A program made the position numbers and the translations under genes. Shown one piece after another: positions 3,608-27,657 of a stretch of DNA of 64,000 nucleotides. Origin of the DNA: an uncultured Acidimicrobiia bacterium. Its GTDB lineage: Bacteria; Actinomycetota; Acidimicrobiia; Spongiisociales; UBA5794. The notes beneath the pieces were generated by a model, which was given only the letters and a program-made list of their open reading frames with translations, did not search any database and had not been told where the DNA came from. How positions within the stretch are numbered: the first letter of the stretch is position 1; each line of letters opens with the position of its first letter. The stretch spans positions 1,537,140 through 1,601,139 of the forward strand of contig CAVWBO010000007.1 in assembly GCA_963753185.1 (NCBI GenBank), given 5' to 3'.

Positions 3608-4578
3608 GGAACCTCGCCCAGGCGATCACCGACGCGCACGATGTCGCGCTCGGAGCCGATGACCGCGTCGTCGTGCTCGGCGAGGACGTCGGCGTCAACG
3701 GGGGCGTGTTCCGCGTCACCGACGGCCTCCTCGAGGCATACGGCCCGAACCGTGTCATCGACACGCCGGTCGCAGAATCAGGGATCGTGGGTGCGGCGTT
3801 CGGGATGGCGATCGCCGGCCTGAGGCCGATCGCAGAGATCCAGTTCATGGGGTTCTCCACGCCTGCGTACGACCAGGTGATCAACCACGTATCGCGTATC
3901 CGCAACCGCTCGAGGCACAGGTTCACGAGCCCGCTCGTCCTCCGGATACCATACGGCGGTGGCTTCGGTGCCGCAGAGCACCACTCCGAATCCTGGGAAG
4001 CGCTCTACGCCCACATACCGGGACTGAAAGTCGTCACGCCGAGCACACCGCACGATGCGAAGGGGCTGCTCCTGGCTGCTGTCGAGGACCCCGATCCCGT
4101 TGTGTACCTCGAGCCCATTCGCCTCTACCGCTCCGTGAAGGAGGAGGTCCCGGAAGGCCATTACACCGTCGAACTCGGCACGGCAGCGATCAGGTCGAGT
4201 GGAAGCGATGTCTCGCTGATCACCTGGGGTGCCATGACGAAGGAGTGCCGCGCGGCGACCGAGCAGCTCCTCGAGGAGGGCATCTCTGTCGAGCTGATCG
4301 ATGTTCGATCGCTCGTGCCCCTCGACACGGACACCATCGTCGAGTCGGTCACGCGGACAGGCAGGGCCGTGATCGTGCACGAAGCGCCTCGCACCGGGGG
4401 TTTCGGCGCCGAGATCGCGGCGATCATCTCCGAACGCTGCCTCTATTCGCTGCTGGCGCCGGTACGGCGCATCACCGGGTGGGACACGGTCTTCCCGCTC
4501 AAACGCAGCGAGCACATCTACCTCCCGTCGGTCGAACGCATCGTCACGGCCGTCCGTGACTCGCTCGAGGACGGCTGA
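3598..4578 (+). CDS. 2-oxoacid dehydrogenase E1 component beta subunit
   Basis: It has a transketolase-like E1beta signature (VVLGEDVG...GGVFRVT, IDTPVAESGIVG, PYGGG). Its stop overlaps the E2 start as TGATG. Confidence 0.9.
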   Translation: MAVRNLAQAITDAHDVALGADDRVVVLGEDVGVNGGVFRVTDGLLEAYGPNRVIDTPVAESGIVGAAFGMAIAGLRPIAEIQFMGFSTPAYDQVINHVSRIRNRSRHRFTSPLVLRIPYGGGFGAAEHHSESWEALYAHIPGLKVVTPSTPHDAKGLLLAAVEDPDPVVYLEPIRLYRSVKEEVPEGHYTVELGTAAIRSSGSDVSLITWGAMTKECRAATEQLLEEGISVELIDVRSLVPLDTDTIVESVTRTGRAVIVHEAPRTGGFGAEIAAIISERCLYSLLAPVRRITGWDTVFPLKRSEHIYLPSVERIVTAVRDSLEDG

Positions 4579-15473: not shown

Positions 15474-15889
<416 letters not shown>

Positions 15890-24152: not shown

Positions 24153-25113
24153 ATGAGTGACTTCTCATGGCCGGCGACGATCGGCGCCCTCATCGACTCC
24201 GAGGACCTGTCGCGACAGGCGGCAGCGAGAGCGATGGCCGAGATCATGTCCGGTCGCGCCTCCGACGCGCAGATCAGCGCCTTCATCGTCGCACTGCGGA
24301 CCAAGCGCGAGACCGCCGATGAGGTGGCGGGAATGGTCGACGCGATGATGGACGCAGCCGTGACGGCAAACGTTCCCAACTCGGTCGACATCGTCGGGAC
24401 GGGCGGCGACGGATTCGGGACGTTCAACGTCTCGACGACGGCGGCCTTCATCGCCGCAGGCGCCGGTGTCCGGATCGCCAAGCACGGCAACCGCGCCGCA
24501 TCATCCAAGACGGGTTCCGCCGACCTCCTCGAGGCACTCGGATTCGACATCGAGCTCGGACCCGATCAGGTTGCGCGGATGGTCGACGAATCGAACTTCG
24601 GCTTCTTCTTCGCCCCGAGGTACCACCCCGCGATGCGCCACGCCGCGAGCTGCGCGGAGGGACCTTGGCGTTCGGACCGTCTTCAACTTCCTGGGACCGC
24701 TGTGCAATCCCGCCGGTGCGCGCATGAGCGTCGGCGTTTCCGATCCACGCATGGCCGAGGTCATGATCGAGGTCCTTGCGGCCAGAGGTGTCGACCGCGC
24801 GTTCGTGGTGTACGGGGAGGAGGGCCTCGACGAACTCTCACCGGCAGGTCCGTCGAGGATCCATCGCCTGATCGACGGCGAGGTGACCGAGGCCGAGTTC
24901 ACACCAGAGGACTTCGGGATACGTCGCTCCCGTATCGAGGACATCGTCGGCGGTGACAGCGACCGAAACGTCGCGATCACCCTGGCGATCCTCGACGGCG
25001 AGGCAGGCCCACAACGAGACGCAGCCGTCATCAACGCGGCGCCCGCGATCATCCTGGGTGGGCTCGCCGACGGATTCGTGCATGCGGTCGAAGCTCGCCG
25101 AGGACGCCATTGA
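24153..25113 (+). CDS. trpD: Anthranilate phosphoribosyltransferase, frameshifted
   Basis: It has the GTGGDG and KHGNRA motifs. The frame changes near 24648-24660 within a GCGCGG run. The downstream part continues RDLGVRTVFNFLGPLCNPAGA in the +1 frame. Confidence 0.8.
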
Positions 25114-25212
25114 CAGCGGAGCCGCGAAACGGGCGCTGACGAAATCCTTGACGATCAATGAACTCGTCTCCAGATCGACGTGGTAGGGCGGGTGCACATC
25201 TACCGTCCACGG

Positions 25213-25833
25213 ATGAGTCGAGTGAACCTCACCCTGTCAGCGATCCTCATGCTCGTCGTGTCGGGGTGTGCCGCCTCCACGGACCCGACCCAACCGGACG
25301 GGACGACGACCTCCGTCACCACACCATCGACGACGCAATCGGAATCCGAGGCACCTTCGGCTGGCGAACCCACGGACACCACGACGACAACCGTCGATGA
25401 AGCACCATCGAGGCCCGACGGACCCGCAGCGCCCGACTTCACCCTCGCCCTCGGCGCGGACGGCGCATCGACCTTCTCACTCTCGCAGGAGGTCAAGCCC
25501 GTGTTCATGGTGTTCTGGGCTGAGTGGTGAAGCATCTGTCGACGGGAGTTGCCCGTCGTCGACTCTGTCGCTTCCGACTACCTCGCTGACGTCTCGTTCC
25601 TCGCGGTCGCCGGTCGGTCCGACATCGCACGGACGTCGGAGAGGGCGGACGAGCTGTTCAGTGAGAATCTGGCATGGGGGCTCGATGATCGCATCTGGGA
25701 CCTGTACGGCGTTCCCGGCCAGCCTGCGACCATCCTGATCGCCGACGGCGTGATCGTCGACCAGTGGTTCGGCGCTGCTCCCGAGGAGTTCATCCGCGAG
25801 CGCCTCGACAGGCTCGTCAGCCTGTCCGGGTGA
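25213..25833 (+). CDS. TlpA/ResA-like thiol-disulfide oxidoreductase lipoprotein with an in-frame TGA, a putative selenocysteine, at the first position of the CxxC motif
   Basis: The lipobox is LVVSGC. The thioredoxin-fold motifs read KPVFMVFWAEW-[TGA 25528-25530]-SICRRELP ... YGVPGQPATILIADGVIV. Both halves are in the same frame. Confidence 0.6.
25540..25558 (+). promoter_or_regulatory. Candidate bacterial SECIS hairpin
   Basis: CGACGGG-AGUUG-CCCGUCG forms a 7-bp GC stem with a 5-nt loop. It starts 12 nt after the in-frame UGA. Confidence 0.4.
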
Positions 25834-26518
25834 CCCTGCGGTCGGCGAGGAATGCGGCGGCCATCCACCCCACTCCGACAAGGGCGGCGATCAGGTACAG
25901 AGCGACAGGGCCACCGTCGATCGAGATCCGGAGGGGTTCCGTGACGAGCCGCAGCGACCCCGCGGTGGCGATCGCCACGCCGGCGATGACTCCCGGCCAC
26001 GGCCGTGCCTTCCACTTCCACACGGCGAGGACACCTGCAACGAGGACGAATCCGATCGCGACATACAGCTCGACGGGATGCCTGGTCACCGTGCTCCCCG
26101 GAAGCGACCACGCCCACGGGACCCCTGATTCGACACCCAGGCATGCGTTCGACGTCACGCACCCGGCGTGCCATCCGGCGAGCCCCGCGAGTGCTGCGGG
26201 GGCGATCGCATCGGCGGTCGTTACGAGGTCCCGTCTGGCAAGGACGGCGAACACGACGAACGCGCCAACTGCGGCTGCCGTGGTCGATACGCCGCTTCGT
26301 ATGAGCAGGATCTGACCCGGGTCGCTGATCGGGTTGATCCCGGCGCCCACCATTGCCGAAAGCCTTCCAATGAAGACCCCAGCGATCGCAGAGGTGAGTC
26401 CCGCCTCCCACAGGTCGACGGCGCAACCCGCGGCGTTGCCTCTCGGCGCCTCCCATCGAAGCACGGTCCAGAAGGAGGCCACACCGATCGCCGCGGCTCC
26501 GAGGAGTGAGAACTCCAT
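25817..26518 (-). CDS. lgt: Prolipoprotein diacylglyceryl transferase
   Basis: It has the RHPVELYV (HPxQLYE-like) motif and GVFIGRLSAMV, and is polytopic. Its ATG overlaps the upstream tlpA stop as TGATG. Confidence 0.65.
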   Translation of the reverse strand: MEFSLLGAAAIGVASFWTVLRWEAPRGNAAGCAVDLWEAGLTSAIAGVFIGRLSAMVGAGINPISDPGQILLIRSGVSTTAAAVGAFVVFAVLARRDLVTTADAIAPAALAGLAGWHAGCVTSNACLGVESGVPWAWSLPGSTVTRHPVELYVAIGFVLVAGVLAVWKWKARPWPGVIAGVAIATAGSLRLVTEPLRISIDGGPVALYLIAALVGVGWMAAAFLADRRVTRTG

Positions 26519-27003
26519 CAGCGGTCGATCTCGTCGAGGTACCGCGCCATCGTGGGCTCGTCGATGACCCCGAAGTGCAGGTGGGCGAGAGTTCCGTCGG
26601 ATGCGTAGAAGTAGGTCAGCGGCACACCCGCCGTGCCACCGAGGTCGATCGGGATCCTCCCCGATCGATCACTCAGGTGAGTCATCTCGGCATCGCTGAG
26701 GAACTCAGCCATGAATACCCGAGCATCCGGGTCCCGATCCTTGACATTGAGCCCTATGAAGGTGACGGACGGCCGGCTGGTGCTCGCCGATGCGATGAGC
26801 GGCGCCTCGCTGCGACACGGCAGGCACCACGAGGCCCACACGTTGACGACCGCCGGAGCCGATGCGGTGATCTCGGCGAGGAGATCCTCCGTCGTCGTCG
26901 GTACGGGAGGATCGGGGAGGGGGCCCTGCGGAGACGATGTGCACGATGCGATCCCGATTGCCACAGCCAGGAACGCCGTGACGACGAAGGGTGGGAGCCG
27001 CAT
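26518..27003 (-). CDS. TlpA/ResA-like thiol-disulfide oxidoreductase lipoprotein (Cys form)
   Basis: The lipobox is IGIASC. It has the VVNVWASWCLPCRSEAP motif and a GVPLTYF segment. Confidence 0.8.
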   Translation of the reverse strand: MRLPPFVVTAFLAVAIGIASCTSSPQGPLPDPPVPTTTEDLLAEITASAPAVVNVWASWCLPCRSEAPLIASASTSRPSVTFIGLNVKDRDPDARVFMAEFLSDAEMTHLSDRSGRIPIDLGGTAGVPLTYFYASDGTLAHLHFGVIDEPTMARYLDEIDR

Positions 27004-27029: not shown

Positions 27030-27657
27030 TCAATGCATCCGGGCTCGGAGTTCGGCCGCGATCTCCTCGACGTCGAGGCCTGCACCCGACGACGAGCGCG
27101 AGCAGGTGATACAGAAGGTCGGCTGCCTCTTCGATCACTCGCGAAGGATCGCCACCGAGCTCGAGGTCCTTCCGTGCGAACGCCACCTCTCCCGCTTCCT
27201 CGAGCACCTTGCGTGCGGCGAGATCCGGGTTCGAGATGAGCCTCGCCGTGTAGGAGACCTCCGGATCGGCGTCCGCGCGCGTCGCAATGATCCGGTCCAG
27301 ACGGTCGATGGTCCCGCCGAGTGACGCGCCGAGTGATGCGGCACGGGACGCTCCGAAGCATGTATCTGCACCCGTGTGGCAGGTGGGTCCGTCGGGCTGT
27401 GCGGTGACGAGGAGCGCATCGCCATCGCAGTCCACCGAAACGGAGAGCACCTTCAACGTGTTCCCGCTCGTCTCACCCTTCTTCCAGATGCGACCCCTCG
27501 TCCTGCTCCAGAAGTGCACGAACCCTGTGTCCTGGGTGAGGCGGAGTGCCTCGGCATCCATGAACCCGACCATCCGCACAGAGCCTGTGGCCTCGTCCTG
27601 GATCACGGAGACCACGAGGCCGTCGCTCGATGGTGTGAGATCGGAGAAGTCGATCAC
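27030..27657 (-). CDS. hisIE: Bifunctional phosphoribosyl-AMP cyclohydrolase / phosphoribosyl-ATP pyrophosphatase, frameshifted near the 3' end
   Basis: The HisI part contains GFMDAEAL...[17 protein letters not shown]. The HisE part contains LLYHLL. The HisE C-terminus ([17 protein letters not shown]) is in the +1 frame after a GGG run near 27085. A GTGA overlap links it to hisF. Confidence 0.8.

Follow-up and report, generated by a model that had tools for sequence, protein, structure and literature searches.

An in-frame TGA conserved in a predicted thioredoxin-fold lipoprotein gene of Acidimicrobiia points to a selenoprotein encoded next to a divergent LGT-family gene

In a 64,000-nucleotide stretch of DNA from an uncultured Acidimicrobiia bacterium (contig CAVWBO010000007.1 of assembly GCA_963753185.1; G+C content, 66%), hereafter called the window, a thioredoxin-like gene on the plus strand (25213..25833) contains an in-frame TGA at the first position of its redox motif, which raises the question of whether this codon is read as selenocysteine (Sec). 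This gene, referred to here as the Sec gene, converges on a gene of the LGT family (25817..26518, minus strand), and upstream of the latter lies a second thioredoxin-fold gene with an ordinary Cys motif (26518..27003, minus strand). A sequence-only reading of the window had taken the two thioredoxin-like genes as a Sec/Cys paralog pair of lipoproteins bracketing lgt; the coordinates and motifs that it gave, the 17-nt overlap between the Sec gene and lgt, and the TGATG coupling of the other two genes are all correct in the sequence. All three genes are intact in the window. Our analysis gives good support to the interpretation of the TGA as a selenocysteine codon, which makes this conserved Acidimicrobiia gene a genuine candidate for a selenoprotein gene, whereas the neighboring Cys gene is not its paired paralog.

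The orthologs of the Sec gene were collected by a scan at one genome per species, in which the best 80 of 275 relatives, nearly all of them metagenome-assembled genomes (MAGs) of Acidimicrobiia, were kept, and the neighboring loci in these other genomes were taken with ±10 kb flanks. At the Sec position, 78 of the 80 species genomes have TGA; the two exceptions, L053 and L057, have TGT or TGC. The frame beyond the TGA is open in all genomes kept, and all 82 sites read U-x-x-C-(R/Q/K)RELPV and continue to a conserved C-terminus, with tblastn alignments running across the TGA (for instance, over residues 19-206 at 83% identity). Since the TGA is shared by orthologs with no more than 43-83% protein identity to the window gene, it is ancient and under selection, and the pattern of its conservation is far beyond chance. 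When the window protein, with U replaced by C, was used as the query in a protein search, 27 clusters of 114-161 amino acids without any Pfam domain were found to stop exactly at ...[VI]FWAEW, and these are gene calls cut off at the same stop. The same search returned approximately 30 full-length homologs of 180-220 amino acids with WCxxC at the site, whose invariant first Cys aligns with the UGA, and in a neighbor-joining tree of this Sec/Cys family and the genes for the neighboring Cys protein, the Cys forms are dispersed within the Sec clade. Of the 23 confidently assigned genes of the window, 21 use TGA as their ordinary stop codon, and therefore the genetic code is not reassigned. The retention of both the codon and the frame thus bears out the proposal of a selenoprotein: the gene with the UGA is a conserved and genuine candidate. 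The locus L016 has two tandem copies of the gene after trpD (at 2737 and 3406), each with the TGA and the hairpin described below, and a similar extra spacing after trpD is seen in L007. One full-length homolog, P0018, reads CPNF and so is without the resolving Cys; it comes from a contig of approximately 1.1 kb, as does the homolog P0001, which is considered below.

The codon is followed directly by a hairpin that resembles a selenocysteine insertion sequence (SECIS). This hairpin, CGACGGG-AGUUG-CCCGUCG (25540..25558, plus strand), has a conserved 6-bp stem in which 25541-25546 are paired with 25552-25557 around an apical loop at 25547-25551; its stem of 6-7 bp begins 10-11 nt past the UGA, and the 5-nt loop AGUUG contains a G in at least 90% of the sequences. 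A bacterial SECIS has been described as a stem-loop that follows the UGA directly and whose apical loop is small and includes a G (PMC1088965), and the anatomy of our hairpin matches this description. When 82 distinct segments of 57 nt, each beginning with the TGA, were aligned without gaps (A2), 89% of the cells of the 7-bp helix were paired, as opposed to 39-69% when the 3' partners are slid. Compensatory changes are found at pair 14-30 (GC in 59 sequences, AU in 15, and CG in 2) and at pair 17-27 (GC in 75 and AU in 2), pair 15-29 alternates between AU (47) and GU (30), and the outermost pair, 13-31, is retained in only about half of the sequences. The inner pairs of the hairpin were found independently by RNAalifold. 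Since the stem overlaps the codons of a conserved peptide, the synonymous sites were compared with codon usage in the 23 confidently assigned genes of the window. The second Arg codon in the hairpin is CGG in 77 of 77 cases (genome-wide share, 22%), the Pro codon is CCC in 76 of 81 (32%), and the Leu codon in the loop is TTG in 58 of 82 and CTG only once, with a genome-wide share of 5% for TTG. Codon choice therefore departs strongly from genome usage, which is constraint on the hairpin at the RNA level. A pattern search of the window and the related loci for the same hairpin after other TGAs matched only the Sec-gene family. Searches of Rfam at gathering and E-value thresholds gave no model matching the hairpin and none for a bacterial SECIS.

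Approximately 20 of the 82 orthologs have a second perfect hairpin (A2 columns 31-51; for example, L001 10514-10534 and L026 10139-10159), which is absent from the window and occurs mostly in a subclade whose first-hairpin loop is without GUUG. Two of its forms, CGAUGC-GGUC-GCAUCG and CGACGC-AGUU-GCGUCG, differ by a compensatory change, and the GGUC loop is reminiscent of the loop of the E. coli fdhF SECIS.

When the in-frame TGA (25528..25530, plus strand) is read as Sec, the gene, which starts with the ATG at 25213 and ends with the stop codon at 25831-25833, would encode a TlpA/ResA/DsbF-like selenolipoprotein of 206 amino acids. Its active site would read ...KPVFMVFWAEW-U-SIC-RRELPVVD..., with Sec106 at the first position of the U-x-x-C motif and the resolving Cys109 encoded at 25537-25539. 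Lipoboxes were called by pattern match (G+LPP or a generic lipobox) and by ortholog alignment. The predicted signal peptide and lipobox, MSRVNLTLSAILMLVVSG-C19, extend over 25213..25269 (plus strand), with the Cys19 codon at 25267-25269; the lipobox is V-S-G-C, the N-terminus fits G+LPP, a pattern of Gram-positive lipoproteins, 82 of 84 orthologous sites show a lipobox-like motif, and C19 is found in at least 90% of the alignment rows. Between this putative lipid anchor and the catalytic domain lies a low-complexity Thr/Pro/Ser-rich tether (25270..25431, plus strand; 54 residues with 15 T, 8 P, and 7 S). In the catalytic domain, W105, C/U106, C109, Q170, and P171 of the cis-Pro loop are invariant in the family alignment, while the x-x residues of U-x-x-C vary freely among orthologs (SI, GS, PT, GV, and others).

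The Pfam matches of the Sec protein to AhpC-TSA (33.5 bits, cutoff 26), Thioredoxin (31.4, cutoff 23.5), and Redoxin (29, cutoff 26.6) are all above the cutoffs, whereas its NCBIfam scores for ResA (NF002854, 44.2 versus 170), TlpA (NF047696, 22.8 versus 230), and DsbE (TIGR00385, 24.4 versus 123) are all below them. Its best full-domain relatives in a PDB sequence search are DsbF and DsbE of Mycobacterium tuberculosis and ResA. The structure was modeled with the Cys ortholog P0005 standing in for the window protein: the thioredoxin domain has a predicted local distance difference test score (pLDDT) above 95 and the N-terminal ~50 residues, comprising the signal peptide and the linker, have low confidence (block-mean pLDDT, 45-56). 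The modeled domain superposes on DsbF, ResA, DsbE, CcmG, StoA, and pneumococcal Etrx1/2, with target-normalized template modeling (TM) scores of 0.80-0.88 for DsbF, ResA, DsbE, and Etrx1/2. Since the fold and the motif match but the models of the named orthologs stay below their cutoffs, we describe the protein as a TlpA/ResA/DsbF-like extracytoplasmic oxidoreductase with a U-x-x-C center.

Very probably, then, the product of the Sec gene is an extracytoplasmic thiol-disulfide oxidoreductase of the TlpA/ResA/DsbF type, predicted to be lipid-anchored, with Sec as the attacking residue. The anatomy of the gene suggests how it could be made and could work. A ribosome that meets the UGA at 25528 would be served by the AGUUG hairpin, which would recruit SelB with Sec-tRNA(Sec), so that Sec106 would be inserted and translation would run on to 25833. 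The precursor would be secreted by means of its signal peptide and diacylglycerylated on Cys19, and the Thr/Pro-rich tether of approximately 55 residues would then keep the enzyme on the outer side of the membrane. There, Sec106 may attack a disulfide or a sulfenic acid of the substrate to give a selenenylsulfide that Cys109 would resolve, and recycling would probably be carried out by a membrane electron donor of the CcdA/DsbD type.

A selenoprotein gene beside a Cys paralog would be a familiar picture, and the sequence-only reading saw such a pair at this locus. The adjacent Cys gene (26518..27003, minus strand) encodes a DsbE/CcmG-like thioredoxin-fold protein of 161 amino acids with the motif WCLPC, which Pfam also puts in AhpC-TSA/Thioredoxin/Redoxin. 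Its best NCBIfam score is for DsbE (TIGR00385, 63.1 bits, below the cutoff of 123.15), and its best sequence matches in the PDB are CycY/CcmG (1kng) and DsbE (3kh7). A lipobox had been claimed for both thioredoxin-like genes and was found in both, VSGC at Cys19 of the Sec protein and I-A-S-C in the DsbE-like protein, where it fits the generic lipobox only, with S at position -1. The presumed pairing of the two genes did not hold, however. The Sec protein and the DsbE-like protein are 30% identical over 111 amino acids, and the mean identity of DsbE-like proteins to the Sec/Cys family is approximately 23%, compared with 50-54% within that family. In the phylogeny that had been proposed for the two "paralogs", the DsbE-like genes are monophyletic and stand apart from the Sec/Cys family. 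True Cys counterparts of the Sec gene lie behind trpD at the same locus in L053, L057, and L087, and others were found among the protein homologs (P0002-P0032). Since the DsbE-like genes form their own clade and the Cys forms fall among the Sec forms, the selenoprotein is validated by Cys counterparts that are orthologs in other genomes, and the adjacent Cys gene is a distant superfamily relative of the Sec gene. It is flanked by hisIE and the LGT-family gene, not by ccm genes. In L085 (6039-8594), L086 (5901-8456), and L087 (6464-8648), a ccmF-ccmH-thioredoxin-like cluster for System I cytochrome c maturation is located 1.4-1.8 kb downstream of the Cys-form gene, on the opposite strand and converging on it. 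These clusters in three Cys-form genomes hint that the DsbE-like neighbor found elsewhere may be a relative of CcmG.

The gene between the two thioredoxin-like genes (25817..26518, minus strand) encodes a membrane protein of 233 amino acids, and its 3' end overlaps that of the Sec gene by 17 nt. At its other end, its ATG is overlapped by the TGA of the DsbE-like gene (TGATG), and the two genes are predicted to be translationally coupled in the window. The name lgt was right as to the seven-helix fold: the protein matches Pfam LGT (PF01790) with 56.3 bits against a cutoff of 24.9, and for its AlphaFold2 model (pLDDT, 87.6) E. coli Lgt (5azb) was the sole significant PDB match found by Foldseek (E = 8e-7, TM 0.72). 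An alternative identity for this protein, a CcdA-like redox partner, was rejected, as its only structural match is Lgt. As a name for a canonical Lgt, in contrast, lgt could not be upheld, with a score of 18.3 bits for TIGR00544 (cutoff, 118.9) and the loss of key residues. When 120 members of the family were compared with an E. coli Lgt sequence that had been verified in part, Y26 was absent and H103 was replaced by T, V, or A, R143 by H, N146 by C, and Y235 by A, while G154, HPxxLY, R239, and E243 were retained. C32, C120, and C126 are invariant across the 120 homologs, with C120 in place of the essential N146, and the window protein is without most of the periplasmic head. A survey of the diversity of Lgt from 2026 described a divergent subgroup, including Acidimicrobiales, that departs from the canonical motif, and N146C variants with a nearby second Cys were read there as possibly having a stabilizing disulfide (PMC13251419). 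Thus, according to its model and its residues, the "lgt" of the window is a divergent Lgt of the Acidimicrobiales type with the Lgt fold.

The linkage to lgt had been called unusual, but the arrangement is typical of the lineage. The order trpD, Sec gene, LGT-family gene, DsbE-like gene, and hisIE, in which the first two genes face the last three, recurs in most related genomes. Among the 73 loci with enough downstream sequence, the LGT-family gene is convergent with and adjacent to the Sec gene in 41, lies within 10 kb in 10 more, and is absent in 22; the possibility that relatives carry a single tlpA gene next to lgt, the second copy being a decayed one, is not what was found. In almost every LGT-family locus with enough flanking sequence, the gene immediately upstream on that strand is DsbE-like, and it usually follows hisIE. 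The Sec gene is linked more tightly to trpD than to the LGT-family gene: in 64 of 72 loci, trpD lies upstream of it in the same orientation. In the window, trpD (anthranilate phosphoribosyltransferase; 24153..25186, plus strand; Pfam Glycos_trans_3N and Glycos_transf_3) ends 26 nt before the Sec gene, and on the minus strand hisG, hisD, hisC, hisB, hisH, hisF, and hisIE lead up to the DsbE-like gene. The his genes were identified by Pfam, except for hisIE (27030..27657, minus strand), the last gene of the cluster, which was located upstream of the DsbE-like gene by tblastn with the intact HisIE of L005. The DsbE-like and LGT-family genes are a pair of their own, co-oriented, which closes the his cluster and converges on the Sec gene, and the conserved trio looks like a class-typical synteny block at the junction of two converging operons.

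Compared with its intact L005 ortholog, the trpD gene of the window is spread over three frames, the shifts falling near 24645-24655 and 25060-25092, and hisIE has a frame change near 27085-27089. These three changes could be either assembly indels, as in long-read assemblies, or signs of real pseudogenes, and they are probably the former; single-base details elsewhere in the window should therefore be read with some care. At L028 (8158-9870) and approximately a dozen other loci, an insertion of ~1.7 kb between trpD and the Sec gene encodes a protein of 570 amino acids, which, judged by its sequence, looks like an AMP-binding enzyme of the acyl-CoA ligase type and not redox-related. The typical Acidimicrobiia locus was also found on MAGs titled Kiloniellales or Acidobacteria (L018, L024, L080, L060, and L084), titles that are probably due to binning contamination or mislabeling. 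A scan of 23.8-27.4 kb for promoters and terminators gave nothing useful, no tRNA gene was found in the 64-kb window, and the sole Rfam match in the window is a bacterial class A RNase P RNA (15474-15887, minus strand; 288 bits).

Several observations weigh against a selenocysteine codon, and they have to be considered together with other explanations of the TGA. The gene might be a recent pseudogene in which a Cys codon was mutated to TGA, or the TGA might be a sequencing error, so that no full-length protein is made. The sequence is indeed not flawless, since the neighboring trpD and hisIE genes carry frame errors within 1.5 kb of the Sec gene, and gene callers split or shorten the gene; however, a single recent event is refuted by the comparative data, in which the same TGA is shared by proteins of such divergence, approximately 100 codons past it stay open and conserved, and the hairpin after it is under strong synonymous constraint, so that this explanation has a negligible probability. 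It is also conceivable that the UGA is read through without a Sec system, by a near-cognate Trp or Cys tRNA or a suppressor tRNA, with the hairpin as a stimulator of read-through. In agreement with this, tRNA-Sec, selA, selB, and selD were found neither in the window nor in related loci totaling ~1 Mb, which are genome fragments only, ARAGORN detected no tRNA-Sec in the window and 53 related loci, and in the homolog P0001 the site is a Trp codon, TGG, which differs from TGA by one base (FWAEW-W-GSC). Nevertheless, the codon replaces the catalytic nucleophile of CxxC, where Trp would inactivate the enzyme, the interchange of Sec and Cys across the tree is the classic pattern of selenoproteins, the small apical loop contains a G as in bacterial SECIS elements (PMC1088965), and selA, selC, and selD, together with a divergent, below-threshold selB candidate, have been reported in an Acidimicrobiia order, Actinomarinales (doi 10.64898/2026.04.03.716425). 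Read-through of this kind is therefore very unlikely. The hairpin is itself less than decisive: taken alone, that of the window does not exceed shuffled sequence in stability (z = -0.62), and it sits in the codons for RRELPV, a peptide shared by the Cys forms. The expectation that Cys forms lack the hairpin proved only partly true, as among six Cys-form DNAs it is missing from L053 and L057 and near-intact in L086, and L085 and L087 fold other hairpins. The Cys form L086 (TGC, around 4001-4456) keeps CGUCGGG-AGCUA-CCCGUCG, near-identical to the Sec forms, which may be a fossil SECIS left by a Sec-to-Cys conversion. Because RRELPV is common to the Cys forms and L086 retains the hairpin, part of the conservation is at the protein level, and the presence of the hairpin alone does not discriminate; therefore, the weight is placed on covariation and codon bias.

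If the TGA is a Sec codon, the direction of the chemistry and the role of the neighbors can still be viewed differently. With the same gene and the same recoding, the protein might be a disulfide-forming oxidase or a peroxidase-like scavenger instead of a reductase, considering that the closest solved structure, M. tuberculosis DsbF, was deposited as a "disulfide bond forming protein", the next is DsbE (Mpt53, "soluble secreted antigen"), the top Pfam match is AhpC-TSA, and a CcdA/DsbD gene is not adjacent. However, the fold fits the reductases ResA, CcmG, and Etrx1/2 equally well, and the freely varying x-x residues give no signature of redox potential; we regard an oxidase or scavenger as doubtful, though well worth keeping in mind. 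The Sec, DsbE-like, and LGT-family genes could also form one functional module, for example, one that manages the cysteines of Lgt or depends on Lgt, as might be supposed from the Sec/LGT-family adjacency, from the coupling of the DsbE-like and LGT-family genes in the window and their nearly constant same-strand adjacency, and from C120 and C126, which are invariant and stand where Lgt has its catalytic motif. This is improbable, as the Sec gene is on the opposite strand, its loci without a nearby LGT-family gene are numerous (22 of 73), its tie to trpD is tighter, synteny where operons converge needs no functional link, and a comparable Cys pair in Leptospira Lgt was interpreted as a structural disulfide (PMC13251419). 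More specifically, the trio might be an Acidimicrobiia-specific envelope module in which a divergent Lgt, without the canonical R143/N146/H103 chemistry but with newly acquired invariant cysteines at its catalytic center, is worked or controlled by a thiol/selenol step provided by the flanking thioredoxin-like lipoproteins; this is a long shot, which, if true, would link selenium use to lipoprotein maturation.

The identification of a selenocysteine codon in this gene leaves the understanding of how bacterial selenoproteins work unchanged. What is new is its near-universal presence in the closest 80 species genomes, the predicted lipid anchor, the tight linkage to trpD, and the repeated switching between Sec and Cys. 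The finding matters for annotation, since a gene of most sampled members of the Acidimicrobiia, an abundant class in soil, freshwater, and marine environments, is systematically shortened or split in public data, with 27 clusters that stop at the UGA, an error that recognition of the gene sets right. The gene could serve as a handy marker of Sec use in this class and would add a clear case of a predicted exported, lipid-anchored selenoprotein in a monoderm bacterium. Furthermore, repeated interchange of Sec and Cys at one locus, together with possible fossil hairpins, makes this a useful family for examining what causes Sec to be retained or lost.

Among the solved structures, the best match is M. 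tuberculosis DsbF (Rv1677, 3ios), to which P0005 is 33% identical with a root-mean-square deviation of 1.8 Å and a TM of 0.84, and which the window Sec protein matches in sequence over residues 69-201 (E = 4e-10). DsbF and DsbE/Mpt53 (1lu4) are actinobacterial extracytoplasmic proteins of the CxxC type, but they have Cys instead of Sec and another genomic context. ResA of Bacillus subtilis, TlpA of Bradyrhizobium, and CcmG/DsbE are membrane-tethered thioredoxin-fold reductases with a similar W-C-x-x-C motif and cis-Pro loop; the P0005 model matches ResA and CcmG with target-normalized TM scores of 0.78-0.88, and TlpA was matched at the sequence level only, not in the fold search. The Sec protein differs from ResA, TlpA, and DsbE in scoring far below their NCBIfam cutoffs and in having no adjacent cytochrome c maturation genes in the window. 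Etrx1 and Etrx2 of Streptococcus pneumoniae (4hqs, 4hqz, and 2yp6) are lipid-anchored proteins of a monoderm with the same fold (target-normalized TM, ~0.8), but they have Cys, not Sec, and their known partner genes, CcdA and MsrAB, are not seen near the Sec gene. The Rcas_1661 family of thioredoxin-like (seleno)lipoproteins (NF041057) embodies the same concept, with Sec and Cys forms, but it is not the family of the Sec protein, which scores 20.6 bits against a cutoff of 190 and matches in the N-terminal half only. The LGT-family protein shares the fold, G154, HPxxLY, R239, and E243 with E. coli Lgt (5azb) and differs from it in its three invariant Cys and in being without Y26, H103, R143, N146, Y235, and most of the periplasmic head. 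The closest precedent for the Sec gene is the family of "thiol-disulfide isomerase-like" UxxC selenoproteins (cd02966), which was defined by Zhang, Fomenko, and Gladyshev in 2005 from four Sargasso Sea sequences (PMC1088965) and appears again in a 2026 review in AEM (Applied and Environmental Microbiology; PMC13188914). The two have in common the TlpA-like fold, Sec as the first residue of UxxC, widespread Cys homologs, and a hairpin right after the UGA, and we infer from the domain class and the motif only that the Acidimicrobiia clade belongs to this family. Unlike the published description, however, the Acidimicrobiia clade has a predicted lipoprotein anchor, linkage to trpD, and a class-wide distribution, and the Sec gene is, with good support, a new but unsurprising addition to a family of selenoproteins that has been known since 2005.

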